From positions 57,946 to 121,945 of the forward strand of contig JAZSAI010000033.1 in NCBI GenBank assembly GCA_045601825.1: a stretch of 64,000 nucleotides of DNA. Direction: 5' to 3'. Below, piece after piece: positions 10,838 to 58,553 of this stretch. The stretch is from Paludibacteraceae bacterium. Its GTDB lineage: Bacteria; Bacteroidota; Bacteroidia; Bacteroidales; Paludibacteraceae. The notes under the pieces were generated by a model that did no database searches, was not told the DNA's origin, and worked only from the letters and a program-made list of their open reading frames with translations. Made by a program: the position numbers and the translations under genes. Numbering within the stretch: position 1 is the first letter of the stretch; every line of letters starts with the position of its first letter.

Positions 10838-10863
10838 ATAATTCTTTTAGTTCACTTTGTTTA

Positions 10864-10995
10864 CGTTATTGGTTCGCTTCGCTCACGAAAGTGGTTTCAC
10901 GTTAATGGCTTTGCGTTATTTACGTACCAAAGGTACCACTTTCGTCGAAGACCATTTTCGCTTTAGCCACTTTCGCGGCTCTGCCGCCATTTACG
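10864..10995. repeat. Word + mini-hairpin array (words CGTTAWTGG / CCAYTTWCG)
   Basis: Words alternate with GCTTCGC, CACGAAAGTG, GCTTTGC, TACCAAAGGTA, GTCGAAGAC and CGGCTCTGCCG. Confidence 0.9.
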
Positions 10996-11002
10996 AAAAT
11001 TG

Positions 11003-12214: not shown

Positions 12215-12248
12215 ATCTTAAATGTTTTATATTCTTCTTTTGTCAGTT

Positions 12249-12342
12249 GCTTACCCCTTGCTTACCCCTTAGTTGCCCCTTACTCGCCCCCTATTTCCAT
12301 TGGAACCTCATTGGAACCTCATTGGAACCTGATTGGAACCTC
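12249..12342. repeat. Continuous 11-nt periodic array (4 x GCTTACCCCTT-like, then 4 x ATTGGAACCTC)
   Basis: Direct reading of the spacer between the 2-hydroxyacid dehydrogenase stop and the pepT start. Confidence 0.9.
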
Positions 12343-12351
12343 ACCGTATGA

Positions 12352-16622: not shown

Positions 16623-16697
16623 CGCTTTAGCCACTTTCGTGAGCGTAGCGAACCAATAACGCGAAGCCAATAACGTCGGCAAAGCCGACCAATAACG
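16623..16697. repeat. Word + mini-hairpin array (3 x CCAATAACG)
   Basis: CACTTTCGTG, GCGTAGC, GCGAAGC and TCGGCAAAGCCGA interleave with CCAATAACG. It shares the 17-mer CGCTTTAGCCACTTTCG with 10959-10975. Confidence 0.9.
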
Positions 16698-32026: not shown

Positions 32027-32386
32027 TTGGGCACGTTATGTACCCGAAAAGAAGAACAAGAGATTCAACTTAATCGCAAACTGGCTCAGATAGTAATTGG
32101 CGTACGACGCAGTGGAAAATCTACATTGTGCCAAAAAGTTCTCTTGCAAAGTGGCGTACATTTCGCTTATGTAAATTTCGATGACGAACGCTTACAACGA
32201 GTGTCTGCAGAAGATTTAGATGATATATTGCAAGAACTATATGCTATCTATGGGGCATTCACACATCTATTCCTAGATGAGGTACAAAATGTCAGTGGTT
32301 GGTACTCGTTTGTGAATAGATTGCTTCGACAAGGGGTTAAATTGATACTTACGGGTAGTAATGCGAATTTACTTAGTGGAGAATGA
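32027..32386 (+). pseudogene. Fragment of an AAA ATPase (COG1373/DUF4143-type), truncated at both ends
   Basis: Only the Walker A (GVRRSGKST) and Walker B (LFLDEVQ) region is present, 119 codons from a TTG. Full-length relatives are about 400-450 aa, for example 34227..35561. Confidence 0.7.
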
Positions 32387-32521
32387 AGTACGCATCTGAC
32401 TAACCCTTAGAATTGACAATAATTGACGTCTTAATTGACGATAATTGTCTTTAAACATTGACCCTTGATTTATAAATATTTTTATAGCGAGTGTAACGAA
32501 GCGTATTTTTGTTTGAAAAAA

Positions 32522-33571
32522 ATGAAACAACTGCTCACATACCCCGACATAGCCCCCACCGCTTGGCAAGAGTTGGTGGACCGCTCACCCTACGCTACGT
32601 GGTTCCAAACGCCAGAGGCGTATGAATTCTATGCGTCACTCCCAGAGGAGATGACGCCGTTTGCCTATGCGGTAGCAGAAGATTCCTCATCGCCTTATCG
32701 CCTAAAAGCATTATGCGTGGGCTATATTACAAAAGAAAAGAGTGCTCTCAAGCAGTTCTTCACTCGCCGTGCGATTATCATCGGTGGACCATTGCTCGCC
32801 GAAGATGCAACCGCCGAAGAAATAGCCGCCTTGCTTAACGCAGTGAAAAAACTACAGCGAAGCAATCTACAGCCCGCAGGGCGATCTACAGCAAAGCGAT
32901 CTACAGGGCATAGCCCGATTTATGTAGAAACGCGTAATTTTCATAATTACAGTCACTGGAGAGATTCATTTGAAGCTTGTGGGTTCTTATACCAGCCACA
33001 CTATGATATTCATGTGCATTGCAATGCTACGCACACCATGAGTGAGCGACGTCAGCGCGAACTCAAGCGCGCTGTGAAAAACGGTGCGGAGATCGTAGAG
33101 GCATCATTCGAACAGGAGATACGCGATTGGTACCAGATTCTCAGTAAACTTTATCGCCAGAAAGTACGTACTCCGCTATGGAGCGAAGCGTTTTTCCTGC
33201 AATTCTATCGCAGTGGAGTAGGGAAGTACTTACTAGTGAAGTGCCAAGACAAAGTCATAGGCGGAATGATGTGCCCGATACTACAAGGAAAAGCGATATA
33301 CGAATGGTATGTATGTGGATTGGATGAGGAGTATCGCGACTTCTTCCCATCTGTGATGGCTACGCATGCTGCTATCGAATATGCCAAGACCAACGCTCTG
33401 CCTCTCTTTGATTTTATGGGCGCAGGCAAACCCAATGTGCCATACGGCGTGCGTGATTTCAAGATGGAGTTTGGTGGCGAACTGGTGGAGTATGGAAGAT
33501 TTCTTTGTATTCGCAAGCCACTGCTATATAAGATTGGAGAATGGGGAGTGAAATGGTTGAAGAGATGGTGA
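32522..33571 (+). CDS. FemAB-like / GNAT-fold peptidoglycan-bridge-type acyltransferase family protein
   Basis: 349 aa from the ATG at 32522. C-terminal GNAT-like core ...GKAIYEWYVCGLDEEYRDFFPSVMATHAAIEYAKTNALPLFDFMGAG...VRDFKMEFGG. Contains an in-frame word/hairpin array (32852-32916). Confidence 0.55.
   Translation: MKQLLTYPDIAPTAWQELVDRSPYATWFQTPEAYEFYASLPEEMTPFAYAVAEDSSSPYRLKALCVGYITKEKSALKQFFTRRAIIIGGPLLAEDATAEEIAALLNAVKKLQRSNLQPAGRSTAKRSTGHSPIYVETRNFHNYSHWRDSFEACGFLYQPHYDIHVHCNATHTMSERRQRELKRAVKNGAEIVEASFEQEIRDWYQILSKLYRQKVRTPLWSEAFFLQFYRSGVGKYLLVKCQDKVIGGMMCPILQGKAIYEWYVCGLDEEYRDFFPSVMATHAAIEYAKTNALPLFDFMGAGKPNVPYGVRDFKMEFGGELVEYGRFLCIRKPLLYKIGEWGVKWLKRW
32852..32916. repeat. In-frame word + mini-hairpin array (word GATCTACA) inside the FemAB-like CDS
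   Basis: Hairpins GCGAAGC, GCCCGCAGGGC, GCAAAGC and GGGCATAGCCC alternate with (A/G)ATCTACA. Encodes LQRSNLQPAGRSTAKRSTGHSP. Confidence 0.9.
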
Positions 33572-33678: not shown

Positions 33679-34062
33679 ATGGCAAAGATTACACCAGTAG
33701 ATTACGTACAAGGAATTAGCGGTAAAGTCAGTGGCAAAAGCTCTGGCTATTTCTACCAATCCAAACAAACAGGCAAAACCTACTACCGCGAACGCGAAGA
33801 AACCTATCAAGCCAATCAGTCCCCACGTCAGAAGTGGAACTCTGCGGCTTTCGCCTATGCGCACCGCGAGCTCCGCAAGATTGAAGTTGACTACACGCAA
33901 AAGGAACAGATGGAGAAGGATTACGAACAATCCAACCATCGTGCTCCTAACGGCAAGTCTTACACCACTGCCCATGCTTGGAAATTCAATTGCCTTCTTC
34001 ACGAGTACAAATTAGCCAATCCCTTCGAAAATATTTTGGGGAAACACGGAAAAACGGACTAA
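33679..34062 (+). CDS. Hypothetical basic protein (127 aa)
   Basis: ATG-initiated ORF with soluble, Lys/Tyr/Gln-rich composition. The overlapping antisense ORF 33649..34002 looks like mirror-frame noise. The last 8 codons and the stop lie in unit 1 of a 33-bp tandem repeat. Confidence 0.45.
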   Translation: MAKITPVDYVQGISGKVSGKSSGYFYQSKQTGKTYYREREETYQANQSPRQKWNSAAFAYAHRELRKIEVDYTQKEQMEKDYEQSNHRAPNGKSYTTAHAWKFNCLLHEYKLANPFENILGKHGKTD

Positions 34063-34132
34063 AAAGTTTTGGGGAAACACGGTAAAATGGACTAAAAAGT
34101 TTTGGGGGAAATGGAAATTGTCTGAAAACCAG
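34034..34132. repeat. 33-bp tandem repeat, about 3 units (third unit degenerate)
   Basis: TTTTGGGGAAACACGGAAAAACGGACTAAAAAG, then the same with 2 mismatches, then a decayed copy. Unit 1 contains the stop of the 127-aa ORF. Confidence 0.85.
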
Positions 34133-34167: not shown

Positions 34168-34209
34168 ATACTTGCAAAATCCCTGAAAAAGTAGTACCTT
34201 TGCAGCGAA
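34168..34209 (+). repeat. 42-nt promoter-bearing direct repeat, copy 1
   Basis: ATACTTGCAAAATCCCTGAAAAAGTAGTACCTTTGCAGCGAA. 40 of 42 nt match 35900-35941. Confidence 0.9.
34195..34202 (+). promoter_or_regulatory. -7 box upstream of the AAA ATPase gene
   Basis: TACCTTTG inside the 42-nt repeat 34168-34209. Confidence 0.55.
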
Positions 34210-34226
34210 TATTAGTTGTTTTCGTT

Positions 34227-35561
34227 ATGAGTACACCTATTTTTAAACGAAAGTTATACGACCAATTATTGGCTTGGAAACAAACAAATATCGGTCAAAC
34301 AGCTCTTTTGATAGAGGGGGCTCGCCGTGTGGGTAAATCTACATTGGTTTCGCTATTTGCCAAAAACGAGTATCGTTCGGCAATTATTATTGATTTTAAT
34401 AATGTACCTCAGCATATTATTGATTTGTTTGATGATTATTCTAACTTGGACTTCTTATTTTTGAATCTTCAAACGCACTATCATGTACAATTATTTGAGC
34501 GTGAATCTGTAATCATATTTGATGAGGTGCAGCAATGTCCTCGTGCACGACAGGCAATAAAATATTTAGTAGCAGACGGCAGATATGATTATATAGAGAC
34601 TGGCTCTTTAATTCGTTTACACAAAACTACAAAAGACATCACTATCCCTAGTGAGGAAAAACATATTACACTATATCCTCTTGATTATGAGGAATTCTGC
34701 TGGGCTTTAGGTGATACACTAACAATGAATCTCGTTCGTCAGCAATTTAGCCAACAACGTGGTTTCGGTGGTGCACATCGTGATTTGATACGCGACTTGC
34801 GATTATATATGTTAGTGGGTGGTATGCCGCAAGCAGTAAAGGCATATATCGAAACGAATAATTTTGCTCAGGTTGATGCTATCAAAAGGGATATTTTGAC
34901 TCTTTATGCGGATGATTTTCGGAAAATAGACTCTACTGGAAGAATCTCCAAGTTGTTTATGTCGATTCCTGCTCAGTTGAGCAAAAACGCTATTCGCTAT
35001 ATAGCATCAAGTGTGGTAGGAGAAATAGATTCTAATCGATTATTGGAGATGCTTGCGCAGATGGAAGATAGTCAGGTTGTGAATTTTGCATACCATGCTA
35101 ATGATCCAAATGTGGGTATGTTTCTGAATAGCAATCATGGACAATATAAAATGTTTTTATGTGATACAGGATTATTTGTTACATTGGCATTTTGGGATAA
35201 AGATTTTACAGAAAATGTGATATATAAGCAATTATTATCAAATAAATTATCTGCTAATATGGGATATGTGTATGAAAACTTGGTTGCTCAAATGTTAGTA
35301 ACTGCAGGAAATAAGTTGTTTTATTATACCTTTCCCAAAGATAATAAGCATTACTACGAGATTGATTTCCTTATTTCAAGAGGAAAGAAAATATGTCCTA
35401 TAGAGGTAAAATCGGGTAATTATCGCACACATGTTTCATTGGATGTTTTTATAGGTAAATTTAGTGATAGAATAGAACGTTCGTATATTTTACACACCAA
35501 AGATACAGAGAAGAAAGGTAATATTCTCTGCCTCCCAATGTATATGACACCATTGTTGTAG
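34227..35561 (+). CDS. AAA ATPase, COG1373-type (AAA_14 + DUF4143-like C-terminal domain)
   Basis: Walker A GARRVGKST and Walker B IIFDEVQ. The C-terminus ...YEIDFLISRGKKICPIEVKSG is typical of this family. AT-rich compared with neighbouring genes. Confidence 0.8.
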   Translation: MSTPIFKRKLYDQLLAWKQTNIGQTALLIEGARRVGKSTLVSLFAKNEYRSAIIIDFNNVPQHIIDLFDDYSNLDFLFLNLQTHYHVQLFERESVIIFDEVQQCPRARQAIKYLVADGRYDYIETGSLIRLHKTTKDITIPSEEKHITLYPLDYEEFCWALGDTLTMNLVRQQFSQQRGFGGAHRDLIRDLRLYMLVGGMPQAVKAYIETNNFAQVDAIKRDILTLYADDFRKIDSTGRISKLFMSIPAQLSKNAIRYIASSVVGEIDSNRLLEMLAQMEDSQVVNFAYHANDPNVGMFLNSNHGQYKMFLCDTGLFVTLAFWDKDFTENVIYKQLLSNKLSANMGYVYENLVAQMLVTAGNKLFYYTFPKDNKHYYEIDFLISRGKKICPIEVKSGNYRTHVSLDVFIGKFSDRIERSYILHTKDTEKKGNILCLPMYMTPLL

Positions 35562-40134: not shown

Positions 40135-40169
40135 GAACGGCGCATAGCGCCTACTGTTTAGAGTTTAAA
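40127..40169. repeat. Composite CTAAAC-hairpin-CTAAAC spacer element, inverted orientation
   Basis: GTGTTTAG-gaac-GGCGC ATA GCGCC-tac-TGTTTAGAGTTTAA. The wecB stop TAG is inside the first word. Confidence 0.85.
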
Positions 40170-40180
40170 GATAAAAATAT

Positions 40181-42122: not shown

Positions 42123-42123
42123 T

Positions 42124-42164
42124 CACTAAACAGTAGCGCTTTAGCGCGTTCTCTAAACACAAAA
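42124..42164. repeat. Composite CTAAAC-hairpin-CTAAAC spacer element (mntP to DUF3109)
   Basis: CACTAAACAGTA-GCGC TTTA GCGC-GTTCTCTAAACACAAAA, then ATATG. Confidence 0.85.
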
Positions 42165-42166
42165 AT

Positions 42167-42748
42167 ATGTTTTTGATTCAGAATACATTAGTTAGTTTGG
42201 ATGTCTTGGAGAAGGACTTTTGTTGCGATTTGGATAAATGTCGCGGATGTTGCTGTATCGAAGGCGATGCTGGCGCACCACTGACCGATGAAGAAGAGGA
42301 GAAAATACGCGAGATACTACCTATACTGCTGCCCGATATGACCAAAGAGGCGCGTGCCGTGGTGGAAGCGCAAGGGGTATCGTATCTTGACCCTTCAGGC
42401 GAAAAAGTCACTTCAATTGTCAATGACAAAGATTGTGTCTTTGCCCGAACTGACCACAATGGGTGGTGCTACTGCCTGATAGAAAAAGCATACAACGCAG
42501 GCAAGATTGATTTCAAGAAACCTATCTCTTGTCATTTATATCCTATACGATTGAACAAAGTGGGCGATATGATTGGGGTGGAGTACCATCGTTGGGATAT
42601 TTGCCATTGCGCACGACAACTGGGCAAGAAACTGCATCTGCCTATCTATCAATTTCTGAAAGAGCCACTTATTCGACGTTTTGGACAAGAGTGGTATGAT
42701 GAGCTTTGCCTTGTTGCCTATGAATGGCACAAGCAGGTTAAAGGTTAG
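42167..42748 (+). CDS. DUF3109-family Cys-rich protein
   Basis: Cys cluster FCCDLDKCRGCCCIEGDAGAPLT plus later CYC/CH.C motifs typical of DUF3109. Confidence 0.7.
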   Translation: MFLIQNTLVSLDVLEKDFCCDLDKCRGCCCIEGDAGAPLTDEEEEKIREILPILLPDMTKEARAVVEAQGVSYLDPSGEKVTSIVNDKDCVFARTDHNGWCYCLIEKAYNAGKIDFKKPISCHLYPIRLNKVGDMIGVEYHRWDICHCARQLGKKLHLPIYQFLKEPLIRRFGQEWYDELCLVAYEWHKQVKG

Positions 42749-42758
42749 AAGCATGGAT

Positions 42759-44060
42759 ATGAAGGCTGAGATTATAACAATAGGCGATGAACTGCTGATT
42801 GGGCAAGTGGTGGATACCAACTCGGCTTGGATGGCAGAGCGACTCAATGAGGCGGGGATTGAACTCTACCAAATAACATCTGTGCACGATGACCGAGAAC
42901 ATATACTGAAGGCATTAGACGAAGCCTTCTCGCGTGCAGATATAGTGCTGACTACGGGAGGACTGGGTCCTACCAAAGATGATATTACCAAGCACGTTAT
43001 GTGTGAGTATTTTGGCACTACACTGGTGGAAGATTCGCGCGTGCGTGAGCATATACACGAGTTGTATAAGGAGCGACCTGATGTACTCAATCGCTTGACT
43101 GCTACCCAATGGCTCGTTCCCGAATCGGCTACCATACTGCCTAATCGGGTAGGTAGTGCACCGATTATGGTGTTTGAGAATGAGGTTAAAGGTGAGAGGT
43201 TAGAGGTTAGAGGCGAGGGACAAAATTCAAAATTCCTCATTGCCATGCCTGGTGTACCCCATGAGATGAAGATTGCGATGAGGGAGCAGGTACTTCCGTT
43301 TATTAGGTTAAAGGTGAGAGGTGAGAGGTTAGAGGTGAGCGGTGAGATTATTCATCGCACAATGATGTTGTATGGCATAGCGGAATCGACATTGGCACTA
43401 AAAATAGAGGAATGGGAGAATGCTCTGCCACAATCAATGCATTTGGCATACTTGCCTAAGGACGGTATTATTCGCCTGCGATTGAGCAGTTATGGCGAAG
43501 CAACAAAAGAAGAAATAGAGCAGCAATTAGCTAATCTAAAGCCACTGATAGCAGACTATCTGATAGCCACCGAAGATTTGCCTTTAGAAACGATATTGGG
43601 CAATCTACTCAAACAACGTCATCAGACTATTGCCACGGCAGAGAGTTGTACAGGTGGACGTTTGGCAGCCGCACTCAATGCGCAGTCGGGCGCATCGGCA
43701 TACTATATGGGTTCGGTAGTGGCATACGACAATACCATCAAGGAGCAAGTGCTGGGCGTGAAGCATGATACATTGGAAAAATACGGTGCCGTCAGCGAAC
43801 AAACTGTGCGTGAGATGGCTGAAGGTGTACGCGCACTAATGAACACGGATTATGCAATTGCCACATCAGGTATAGCTGGCCCTACTGGGGGAACACCAGA
43901 CAAGCCCGTAGGTACAGTATGGATAGCATGGGCTACGCCAAAGGGTACGACGGCGGAGTGTTATCACTTTGGTGTTGCGCGTGAACGCGAACAAATCACC
44001 CAGCGTGCAGTCACTGCTGCTTTGGTAGAACTAATCAAATCACTAAACACTAAACAGTAG
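42759..44060 (+). CDS. cinA: CinA-family competence/damage-inducible protein (MoCF-binding domain + PncC-like nicotinamide-nucleotide amidase domain)
   Basis: MKAEIITIGDELLIGQVVDTNS start (an ATG also occurs at 42753). C-terminal domain ATAESCTGG...IATSGIAGPTGG. Contains two in-frame heptamer arrays. Confidence 0.9.
   Translation: MKAEIITIGDELLIGQVVDTNSAWMAERLNEAGIELYQITSVHDDREHILKALDEAFSRADIVLTTGGLGPTKDDITKHVMCEYFGTTLVEDSRVREHIHELYKERPDVLNRLTATQWLVPESATILPNRVGSAPIMVFENEVKGERLEVRGEGQNSKFLIAMPGVPHEMKIAMREQVLPFIRLKVRGERLEVSGEIIHRTMMLYGIAESTLALKIEEWENALPQSMHLAYLPKDGIIRLRLSSYGEATKEEIEQQLANLKPLIADYLIATEDLPLETILGNLLKQRHQTIATAESCTGGRLAAALNAQSGASAYYMGSVVAYDNTIKEQVLGVKHDTLEKYGAVSEQTVREMAEGVRALMNTDYAIATSGIAGPTGGTPDKPVGTVWIAWATPKGTTAECYHFGVAREREQITQRAVTAALVELIKSLNTKQ
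43182..43237. repeat. In-frame heptamer array 1 inside cinA
   Basis: gaggtta aaggtga gaggtta gaggtta gaggcga gggacaa aattcaa aattcct. Encodes ..EVKGERLEVRGEGQNSKF.. Confidence 0.85.
43304..43345. repeat. In-frame heptamer array 2 inside cinA
   Basis: taggtta aaggtga gaggtga gaggtta gaggtga gcggtga, 42 nt, encoding RLKVRGERLEVSGE. Confidence 0.85.
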
Positions 44061-44087
44061 CCCGCAGGGCGTTCACTAAACACCAAA
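44041..44087. repeat. Composite CTAAAC-hairpin-CTAAAC spacer element (cinA to transporter)
   Basis: CACTAAA CACTAAA CAGTA-GCCC GCA GGGC-GTT CACTAAA CACCAAA, then TATG. The cinA C-terminus SLNTKQ* is encoded by the words. Confidence 0.9.
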
Positions 44088-44088
44088 T

Positions 44089-48585: not shown

Positions 48586-48618
48586 GTCGTTGCCGTCTCG
48601 TTGCCGTCTCGTTGCCGT
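48586..48618. repeat. Three tandem 11-mers (C/G)TCGTTGCCGT
   Basis: gtcgttgccgt ctcgttgccgt ctcgttgccgt, followed by the GAAA hairpin at 48622-48637. Confidence 0.9.
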
Positions 48619-52015: not shown

Positions 52016-52019
52016 TCCG

Positions 52020-52082
52020 GGTATCGGTTATCGGATATTGGTTATCGGTTATCGGATATCGGTTATCGAATATCGGATATTG
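52020..52082. repeat. Nine tandem heptamers GWTATYG
   Basis: ggtatcg gttatcg gatattg gttatcg gttatcg gatatcg gttatcg aatatcg gatattg. Starts 5 nt after the acyl-CoA ligase stop. Confidence 0.92.
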
Positions 52083-52109
52083 AAAAGTATTGGAAAATGC
52101 GCATACCGT

Positions 52110-53645: not shown

Positions 53646-53782
53646 TTAGATCGCTGCGCTTGTAGATGGTAGATCGCCACTGAAGTGGCTGTAGATCGGG
53701 CTAAAAGCCCTGTAGATGGTAGAATGCAGCGTTATGCTACACAATCCTACACGTACGCAAAGCGATCGTTTGAGCGCTAGCG
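53646..53782. repeat. Word + mini-hairpin array (word GTAGATCG/GTAGATGG) in the leader of the Na/Pi transporter gene
   Basis: Hairpins GCTGCGC, CCAC-TGAA-GTGG, GGGC-TAAAA-GCCC, CGC-AAA-GCG and the palindrome CGCTAGCG. The words are the reverse complement of the GATCTACA words at 32852-32916. Confidence 0.9.
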
Positions 53783-53819
53783 AAATAAGAATACTATACA
53801 AAACAATTATAATACATTT

Positions 53820-58520: not shown

Positions 58521-58523
58521 AGA

Positions 58524-58543
58524 TTTTTTTTTTTGGGGGGGGG
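58524..58543. repeat. Back-to-back homopolymers T11 G9 (C9 A11 on the coding strand)
   Basis: agaTTTTTTTTTTTGGGGGGGGGagg. Occupies most of the 33-nt spacer between the TolC-like stop and the GNAT start. Confidence 0.95.
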
Positions 58544-58553
58544 AGGAATGCAG

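Follow-up and report, generated by a model that had tools for sequence, protein, structure and literature searches.

How did an array of short repeated words and mini-hairpins come to be read as protein inside an enzyme? The question is raised by a 64,000-nucleotide stretch of Paludibacteraceae DNA (contig JAZSAI010000033.1; here called the window), in which 65 bases of a FemAB/FemX-like acyltransferase gene, at 32852-32916, read CTACA-GCGAAGC-AATCTACA-GCCCGCAGGGC-GATCTACA-GCAAAGC-GATCTACA-GGGCATAGCCC and are followed by a decayed fifth word, GATTTATG. The original prediction, which was made from the letters of the window, had described four different mini-hairpins separated by a word, and re-reading of the positions gave an exact match. 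The best reading of our results is that the array is a DNA-level repeat sequence that was installed once in this gene and is not a functional peptide. The host gene and the parts of the array are as follows.

Positions 32522-33571, plus strand: host gene, a FemAB/FemX-like tandem-GNAT acyltransferase of 349 amino acids (aa) from the probable start ATG at 32522.
Positions 32852-32856, plus strand: core of word 1, CTACA; codons L-Q, corresponding to the native L-Q/H codons of array-free orthologs.
Positions 32857-32863, plus strand: mini-hairpin 1, GCGAAGC, the canonical extraordinarily stable DNA mini-hairpin, kept in 10 of 12 orthologous arrays.
Positions 32864-32871, plus strand: word 2, AATCTACA; all relatives have GATCTACA.
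Positions 32872-32882, plus strand: mini-hairpin 2, GCCC-GCA-GGGC (GCCCGCAGGGC); loops in relatives are GCA, AAA, GTA, and CAA.
Positions 32883-32890, plus strand: word 3, GATCTACA.
Positions 32891-32897, plus strand: mini-hairpin 3, GCAAAGC; the unit is missing in L068/P0036.
Positions 32898-32905, plus strand: word 4, GATCTACA.
Positions 32906-32916, plus strand: mini-hairpin 4, GGGC-ATA-GCCC (GGGCATAGCCC), homologous together with its flanking words to an opposite-strand unit at 53688-53717.
Positions 32917-32924, plus strand: word 5, GATTTATG, decayed; native (P)-I-Y-V codons, with an intact GATCTACA or GATCTATA within P-I-Y-I in relatives; a breakpoint of recombination directly follows its 3' end.

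The array is real and lies far above chance. All four of its inter-word segments are perfect palindromes of the form stem, 3-nt loop, stem, for which the naive chance is approximately (1/16)^2 x (1/256)^2, and chains of at least two word-palindrome-word units were found at three window loci (16654-16695, 32852-32916, and 53669-53717) versus 0.05 per dinucleotide-type shuffle. The 8-mer GATCTACA by itself was not enriched, with 4 copies in the 64-kb window versus 1.9 expected. Minimum-free-energy folding of the array was no better than that of shuffled sequences (z of -1.4 as RNA and -0.85 as DNA), indicating that the signal lies in the grammar of the array and not in bulk thermodynamic stability. 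An Rfam scan of the whole window found no family at the gathering score. The 11-mer of mini-hairpin 2 is present again at 44060-44070, where it stands between CACTAAACA words.

The array is in frame within the open reading frame (ORF) of the host, which is intact, and its predicted translation is LQRSNLQPAGRSTAKRSTGHSP. The ORF called mechanically spans 32465-33571, with a TTG start at 32465; orthologs begin with MxxLLTYP. The tryptic peptides expected from the predicted translation of the array region are SNLQPAGR and STGHSPIYVETR. The word GATCTACA is free of stops in all three sense frames (D-L, I-Y, and S-T) and its reverse complement holds TAG, which explains the orientation of the word in coding DNA; inside the array it is read in three frames, as L-Q, S-T, and I-Y. 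The host protein scored above the Pfam cutoffs for both FemAB (38 bits, cutoff of 24) and Acetyltransf_6 (36.7 bits, cutoff of 22). Its AlphaFold2 model (pTM of 0.74), which is predicted to have a two-GNAT-domain fold, was matched by Foldseek to FemX from W. viridescens and to the aminoacyl-tRNA-dependent peptide synthases Sbb17 and Sba18, with E values of 7e-11 to 1e-8 and TM scores of 0.56 to 0.74. The pLDDT was below 50 over aa 133-150, which are encoded by the array. This is the only long internal stretch with values this low, and it is positioned after helix 117-128 and before the conserved IY(I/V)ETRNFH strand. In the model, the array is thus predicted to occupy a disordered, permissive loop at the junction of the two GNAT-like halves. 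Both earlier claims about the host, that it is FemAB-like and that the array is read in frame between two halves of the enzyme, agree with these results. Relatives of the gene are in Bacteroidales metagenome-assembled genomes, including Paludibacteraceae, from animal guts.

We compared 40 species-level loci at the insertion site; L-numbers denote fetched loci of relatives. The span from IIGGP to ETRNFH is 56 aa in the window versus 39 to 40 aa in 18 of the 40 loci, and these short loci, which include the most distant ones, contain neither an array nor nucleotide periodicity. They bear out the indel of approximately 22 aa that had been expected relative to orthologs, with its net size corrected to 17 aa, 22 residues standing in place of 5. 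They also mean that distant orthologs do not conserve the segment at the protein level, a point on which the original prediction had staked itself. When the 30-aa peptide was searched against 1.84 billion representatives, it matched only two truncated relatives of the same gene and a spurious ankyrin protein, and nothing was found among 5.8 billion proteins with queries translated from the other two sense frames of the array; the array peptide appears to occur in no other protein family. A metagenome scan with the host protein returned 13 loci only.

The same site has received other sequences as well. In the set of 120 best homologs, the four-hairpin array recurs in at least 52 and a three-hairpin version of it in 1; 10 have no insert, and the remainder have other inserts, which include CKVESLKCKG...TLHPTP, PILNPSLKGR..., PSLQGGAGGRL, and ASRLSPFASRL. 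The DNA of these other inserts also consists of word arrays, many with a central CAGC-NNN-GCTG mini-hairpin between G-rich and C-rich word arms, and variation in this central hairpin is confined to the loop. In all, at least six unrelated word arrays occupy the same position among these closest homologs, and the site is, as judged from the aligned sequences, an insertion hot spot for multiple arrays. A second hot spot lies approximately 55 codons upstream in the host gene, where inserts in orthologs range from 0 to 57 aa. In the composites found there in orthologs, a G-rich and a C-rich word arm flank a central (C/A)GC-NNN-GC(C/T)G mini-hairpin, and the window retains the following trace of them.

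Positions 32685-32708, plus strand: hot spot 1 remnant, CCTCATCG CCTTATCG CCTAAAAG, in frame and read SSSPYRLK; remnant of the C-rich arm of the composite arrays.

The 3' edge of the array merges with the gene itself. In relatives, the last word is made of native conserved codons, ...GCCC GATCTACA TTGAAACC, read S-P-I-Y-I-E. Some array-free alleles (L022 and L025) have CTACAC-CGCAAAGC-AATATATATC, read L-H-R-K-A-I-Y-I, which is suggestive of a site where two microhomologies resembling the word, and even a core like GCAAAGC, were present beforehand.

The anatomy of the array was compared over 12 orthologous copies, which have the canonical form AAA-CTACA-GCGAAGC-GATCTACA-GCCC(NNN)GGGC-GA(T/A)CTACA-GC(NNN)GC-GATCTACA-GGGC(NNN)GCCC-GATCTACA-TTGAAACC; L069 departs from this form in the first hairpin (GGCGTAGCC) and in the 5' flank. 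Hairpin 3 in the 11 copies other than that of the window is GCGAAGC in five, GCAACGC in three, GCAAAGC in L075, and GCGCAGC in L051, and the unit is absent from L068. Variability statistics were obtained from 8 non-recombinant orthologs. In these, 6 of the 53 positions in words and stems were variable versus 8 of the 12 loop positions (p = 2e-4). For third-codon positions, 1 of 17 was variable in words plus stems versus 7 of 20 or 12 of 30 synonymous positions within 30 to 45 nt (p = 0.048 or 0.017). Words and stems were therefore approximately 6-fold less variable than synonymous sites nearby, and the loops varied like neutral sites. Stem cells were paired at a rate of 98.6%, versus 20 to 40% in slid controls. 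Among the stem changes, one was genuinely compensatory (L051 hairpin 2, GCCC/GGGC to GTCC/GGAC, a change from C-G to U-A); of the others, L073 has a C-G to U-G change and L055 has two stems that are weakened. The amino acid changes seen were in loop-encoded residues: A/K/V/Q, K/T, and H/L. The array haplotypes are tree-like and position specific, an example being the third word GAACTACA in L070, L073, L055, and L008, which indicates that the copies are orthologous and have been neither re-inserted nor homogenized. Unit number was constant in at least 113 of approximately 115 alleles (52 of the top 120 matches plus 61 of 64 cluster members, the other three being fragments). The sole length variant was L068/P0036, in which one 15-nt unit has been lost in frame, and among the alleles examined none was frameshifted in a way attributable to a 19-nt change.

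Third-codon diversity is 0.3 to 0.6 along the gene and falls to 0.04 to 0.13 over the array. By distance from the array, the variable third positions were distributed as follows.

More than 90 nt from the array: 37 of 40 variable.
31-90 nt from the array: 31 of 40 variable.
Within 30 nt of the array: 7 of 20 variable.
Words plus stems of the array: 1 of 17 variable.

We had considered this dip to be a sign of strong purifying selection and have withdrawn that interpretation, because the dip is graded over 90 nt on either side and recurs for every array type; a dip in synonymous diversity was seen for three other array types. Since the dip is graded and recurrent and the gene is a recombined patchwork, it mostly reflects identity by descent around a unique insertion, the alleles having been chosen by the presence of the array.

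A relative of the array is found in non-coding DNA of the same window.

Positions 53646-53782, minus strand: non-coding member of the family, bounded by a terminator-like hairpin on one side and by the ATG of a Na/Pi cotransporter gene on the other, and forming the leader of that gene.

Its words are TGTAGATC, TGTAGAT, GGTAGATC, and GTTAGATC, with GC-rich hairpins between them, and the reverse complement of 53646-53730 reads ...TCTACC-ATCTACA-GGGCTTTTAGCCC-GATCTACA-GCCACTTCAGTGGC-GATCTACC-ATCTACAA-GCGCAGC-GATCTAAC. The coding unit ATCTACA-GGGC(loop)GCCC-GATCTACAG agrees with 53688-53717, read as its reverse complement, at all positions outside the loop, which indicates copying between the two loci, in opposite orientations relative to transcription. 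With blastn, the shared unit was recovered at 90% identity over 30 nt, through L198, and the GCGCAGC of the non-coding array is the L051 variant of hairpins 1 and 3. The original prediction had placed one repeat family in both coding and non-coding DNA, with the reverse complement of the word forming the second array. The shared unit upholds this, with the correction that TGTAGATC has one exact copy there, the other copies being one-base variants of it. No further GATCTACA arrays were present outside the host gene in approximately 600 kb of related loci, and this, together with the confinement of the peptide to one protein family, shows the repeat family to be low copy. A scan of viral contigs for GATCTACAG-N(5-13)-GATCTACAG gave more than 120 matches, none with a palindrome between the words; these matches were coding repeats of 9- or 18-nt period in unrelated viruses. 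The Na/Pi transporter encoded downstream of the non-coding array had no exact match on record. The 3' tail of the non-coding array (GTAYGCRAAGCGATCGTWTGAGCGCTAGCGAAATAAGAAYACTATACAA; window 53725-53800) recurs at 15700-15780 of L075, upstream of a Gfo/Idh/MocA oxidoreductase. This was the one other copy of the conserved tail among the fetched loci. It is preceded by different word arms, and the tail looks like a portable leader module.

The host gene (32522-33571) is a fine-scale mosaic, in which 60-nt windows range from approximately 50% to 100% identity to different relatives (L075, L005, L007, and L057), and junctions of recombination or assembly fall at the arrays. Up to the array, the window gene has approximately 95% identity to L075, and immediately 3' of the array it is of the L005/L007/L057 type, while L069 and L074 switch type at the 5' edge of the array. 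At 340-560 of L198, the homology of its FemAB-like gene ends exactly after the last array word and is followed by another word/hairpin array, GCGAAGC-GTCCTGTAG-GCGAAGCC-GTCCTGTAG-..., and then a sigma-70 gene, which is due either to rearrangement between arrays or to a chimera made in assembly at the repeat.

The array is one of a lineage-wide class that fills most intergenic spacers and colonizes tolerant protein loops. Nearly every short intergenic spacer in the window is made of 7- to 11-nt words, often with a GC mini-hairpin between direct repeats, and mini-hairpins flanked in this way numbered 138 in 599 kb (the window plus the fetched loci) versus 19 to 37 in shuffled sequences. GCGAAGC is approximately 2-fold enriched in the window, with 15 copies versus 7.0 ± 2.7 expected. 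Other genomes have the same grammar with other words. Window examples of the class include the following.

Positions 16623-16696: CCAATAAC alternating with GCGAAGC and GTCGGCAAAGCCGAC, just ahead of a GTG start.
Positions 42123-42166: CACTAAACA words with GCGCTTTAGCGC.
Positions 44040-44088: CACTAAACA words with GCCCGCAGGGC.

Three consecutive intercistronic spacers, at 40135-40180, 42123-42166, and 44061-44088, have one GC mini-hairpin each (GGCGCATAGCGCC, GCGCTTTAGCGC, and GCCCGCAGGGC, respectively), flanked by CTAAACA-type words and lying between a stop and the next ATG. L076, a relative with 93% nucleotide identity, differs from the window in its arrays by a hairpin-loop change and a three-unit indel: the hairpin of the second spacer is GCGC-TTTA-GCGC in the window versus GCGC-TATG-GCGC in L076, the loop having changed and the stem having been kept, and the (CGGTTAT/CGGATAT)n heptamer array at 52016-52096, between plus-strand genes, is three units (21 nt) longer in the window. 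A CinA-like gene (42681-44060) contains in-frame heptamer arrays at 43181-43216 and 43305-43347 (GAGGTTA/AGGTGAG, read NEVKGERLEVRGEG and LKVRGERLEVSGE), both of which are missing in approximately 30 of 120 close homologs. Its C-terminal codons and stop continue into CACTAAACA words around GCCCGCAGGGC, the 11-mer of hairpin 2.

Several further repeats were observed. At 10838-11002, two minus-strand genes are separated by a spacer filled with hairpins and GTTATTGG, the reverse complement of the word CCAATAAC. Pure (CCCTACA/CTCTACA)n arrays that are very long (100 to 160 nt), with words akin to the TCTACA core, are present in other Paludibacteraceae genomes, at L010 (1833-2040 and 5643-5836) and L038 (5193-5484). 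Tandem arrays that repeat every 11 or 33 nt lie between genes at 12247-12343, 34034-34107, and 48587-48618 (TTGCTTACCCC, CATTGGAACCT, TCGTTGCCGTC, and a 33-mer repeated 2.2 times). Between minus-strand genes at 58521-58553, T11 is followed by G9 (AGATTTTTTTTTTTGGGGGGGGGAGG), a homopolymer pair of a kind that can vary in length. Next to the host gene, a truncated AAA_14 ATPase ORF (119 aa, 32027-32386) lies directly upstream and a full-length AAA_14/DUF4143 paralog (34200-35561) lies downstream, and the same ATPase family flanks the gene in L070, L072, and L075.

The account that we favor, and to which we would give an even chance of being right, is that a dispersed DNA repeat of low copy number was copied or expanded into a permissive inter-domain loop between native microhomologies, was filtered for frame and orientation, and was then inherited vertically while its loops drifted. 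The native codons would have held two word-like microhomologies approximately 17 nt apart, CTACA(C/G) for L-Q/H and ATCTA(C/T)A for I-Y. An existing array may have been copied between them by anchored template switching or short-patch recombination or, alternatively, an array may have grown from them by hairpin-assisted slippage. The only survivors would have been those with the word in the orientation that is stop free in all three frames and with a total length that kept the frame. The loops would then have drifted freely, with the words and stems nearly fixed, and the array would act as a recombination junction in a highly mosaic gene. The near fixation of words and stems versus the drifting of loops suggests that the hairpins form, most plausibly in single-stranded DNA, and that some constraint operates at the nucleic acid level.

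Several results weigh against this account. The covariation support is thin, with one clean event. The dip in diversity is largely due to ascertainment, and the residual constraint on words and stems reaches only p values of approximately 0.02 to 0.05. Word-like native codons are known from few orthologs (L022 and L025), other array-free alleles having CTGCAG or TTGCAA. Standard energy models do not predict stability for hairpins whose stems are 2 bp, and hairpin 3 of the window (GCAAAGC) departs from the stable GCGNAGC consensus. The L198 junction, if it is an assembly chimera, would not record a rearrangement. Template switching and slippage are themselves steps that we propose, and the array may have been copied in or may have grown in situ.

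It is possible, although we consider it rather unlikely, that the array is a functional nucleic acid element within coding sequence, similar to the repetitive extragenic palindromic (REP) sequences and bacterial interspersed mosaic elements (BIMEs), whose words and stems are kept by selection. The GC-clamped hairpins would then present single-stranded CTACAG words to a partner, whether protein or RNA, or affect mRNA stability, processing, or translation pausing. This explanation concerns maintenance and is compatible with the origin proposed above. The low variability of words and stems relative to their synonymous neighbors, with loops behaving as neutral, is what it would lead one to expect, as are the compensatory and G-U-type stem changes, the loop-only variation of the CAGC-NNN-GCTG hairpin in other arrays, the constant stem and variable loop of the intercistronic hairpin in the window and L076, and the placement of GC mini-hairpins between stop and start in three consecutive gene pairs. 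However, the constraint statistics become marginal once identity by descent is allowed for, and the many alleles that have no array or unrelated arrays make it dispensable for the gene. The word also has opposite orientations to transcription in the coding array and in the 5' untranslated region array, which argues against a common RNA-level reader, and different arrays have different words, so that many readers would be needed. Neither the Rfam scan nor the folding comparison provides support for it. An explanation at the level of the protein, in which the array is a selected flexible linker or interaction peptide (R/S/T/G/P/Q rich) and its nucleotide pattern is incidental, appears highly improbable. 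The peptide is nearly invariant in approximately 110 alleles and lies between two halves of the fold, but third positions are conserved too, amino acid changes are only loop encoded, orthologs that lack an insert or carry an unrelated one still function, the word is translated in three frames, and the segment is predicted to be disordered.

We also doubt, more strongly than for the functional element, that the array consists of one or more miniature mobile elements, similar to REP/REPIN sequences or MITEs (transposable elements of the miniature inverted-repeat type), inserted by a RAYT/IS200-type Y1 transposase that recognizes a GTAG-tagged hairpin. The complementary strand does have TGTAGATC before each hairpin, with GTAG 3 nt from the stem, and in GTAG-1/2 REPs, too, the tag and the stem are separated by unpaired bases; REPs are clustered and are sometimes found inside genes (PMC3733652). 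Mobility would also fit two further observations: one unit is shared, in opposite orientations, by loci that are 20 kb apart, and L075 has the tail of the 53.7-kb array upstream of another gene. Yet the stems are 2 to 4 bp versus 5 to 13 bp in REPs, each hairpin has its own stem where REP families share a stem sequence, and exact copies of the word number only 4 in the 64-kb window. GTAG is missing from the words of other arrays with this grammar (CCAATAAC, CACTAAACA, GTCCCATA, and ATACAT); the order of the four hairpins is orthologous and tree-like across species; and the peptide is in no other protein family and terminal inverted repeats are absent. Direct repeats around palindromes are classic slippage substrates, and the 8-nt direct repeats that flank the hairpins here would suit a contingency (phase variation) switch, in which slipped deletion or duplication of 15-nt (in-frame) or 19-nt (frameshifting) units toggles an enzyme that modifies surface polysaccharide. 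We regard such a switch as very unlikely. The loss of exactly one 15-nt unit in L068/P0036 and the three-unit difference of the heptamer array at 52016-52096 speak for it, as do the usual neighbors of the gene in relatives, which are those of polysaccharide biosynthesis loci (glycosyltransferases, WbsX, SDR, deacetylase, and hexapeptide acetyltransferase). Against it, unit number is the same in nearly all alleles, no 19-nt frameshift allele was seen, and the window gene, with SDR, OYE, steroid-dehydrogenase-like, and AAA_14 ATPase neighbors, lies outside any obvious polysaccharide locus.

In-frame repeat insertions are already known from Rickettsia palindromic elements (RPEs), REPs within genes, and Coxiella MITEs. 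Like these, the array is a non-coding-type repeat that is present both between genes and in frame within ORFs, at a tolerated position, surface or disordered, and with some orthologs lacking it. Unlike RPEs and MITEs, which are single 100- to 150-bp elements whose palindromic arms are long and whose consensus is fixed, it is a 65-nt array of an 8-nt word and four different 7- to 11-nt hairpins, its site hosts at least six unrelated arrays in orthologs, and its 3' word is made of native codons. We rejected RPE membership because, although the insertion is in frame and permissive, it is not a single 100- to 150-bp element with a long palindrome and many copies, being found at two window loci. 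A MITE was rejected because there are no terminal inverted repeats and the word, with native codons as its 3' copy, is the sole direct repeat at the flanks. CRISPR arrays have 23- to 55-nt repeats with unique spacers of similar length, compared with an 8-nt repeat and 7- to 11-nt palindromic spacers here. The array resembles simple-sequence contingency loci in having direct repeats in a gene found in polysaccharide loci of relatives and in having some unit lengths that would shift the frame, but its units are not identical tandem copies and their number is near-invariant; classification as a phase-variable locus was rejected because of this near-constancy, the sole variant being an in-frame 15-nt loss. 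With REPs and BIMEs it shares small, GC-rich stem-loop clusters at gene boundaries, variable loops with compensated stems, and occasional intragenic copies, and one strand has a candidate GTAG-containing tag beside the stem. REP stems are 5 to 13 bp, with a sequence shared by family members (PMC3733652); the four stems here, of 2 or 4 bp, are all different, it is the inter-hairpin word that is conserved instead, copy number is low, and sister words lack GTAG, so that REP/BIME membership was rejected for want of a shared 5- to 13-bp stem. The features tested exclude the array from the REPs, RPEs, MITEs, CRISPRs, and contingency loci, and its resemblance to them is functional or architectural only.

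The comparison with DNA mini-hairpins is closer. The consensus for these is GCGNAGC or GCGNNAGC, and d(GCGAAGC), with a melting temperature of 76.5°C, is a mini-hairpin that is stable only as DNA (PMC13037366). Hairpin 1 (GCGAAGC) fits the d(GCGNAGC) sequence, as does hairpin 3 in five relatives (GCGAAGC) and in L051 (GCGCAGC), unlike hairpins 2 and 4 and the window version of hairpin 3. That GCGAAGC, with its 2-bp stem, is stable only as DNA points to a structure at the DNA level. The known natural cases of the d(GCGAAGC) type are single hairpins at single-stranded DNA replication or transcription initiation sites of phages and plasmids, whereas the present case is a chromosomal coding array.

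In the literature that we searched, we found no description of such arrays in Bacteroidales. What is new is the grammar, in which a conserved short word alternates with non-conserved mini-hairpins, along with the hot spots that receive multiple arrays and the use of such arrays in spacers throughout the lineage. Tentatively, and with the chances well against it, the arrays could be the footprint of a hitherto undescribed, lineage-specific DNA process, an enzyme or an idiosyncrasy of replication or repair, by which a short local word is duplicated and an ultra-stable GC mini-hairpin is placed between its two copies. If it exists, the process would build intergenic spacers and repeatedly remodel permissive loops, with words and stems maintained as its substrates.

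For annotation, array-derived peptides such as LQPAGRSTAKRSTG, CKVESLKCKG, TPYTLHPTP, and GDEAMRQLGDK are best read as artefacts of lineage DNA repeats and not as protein motifs. The variable loops versus fixed stems and words, together with the exact d(GCGAAGC), make the array a tractable place to test ultra-short DNA hairpins in bacterial chromosomes. Within this lineage of uncultured gut Paludibacteraceae, non-coding-type repeat DNA can remodel the same enzyme loops repeatedly: orthologs of one gene have more than eight different arrays at its two hot spots, and the CinA-like gene of the window behaves likewise. The arrays form a natural map of the sites that tolerate insertion and are a supply of linker sequence that is disordered.

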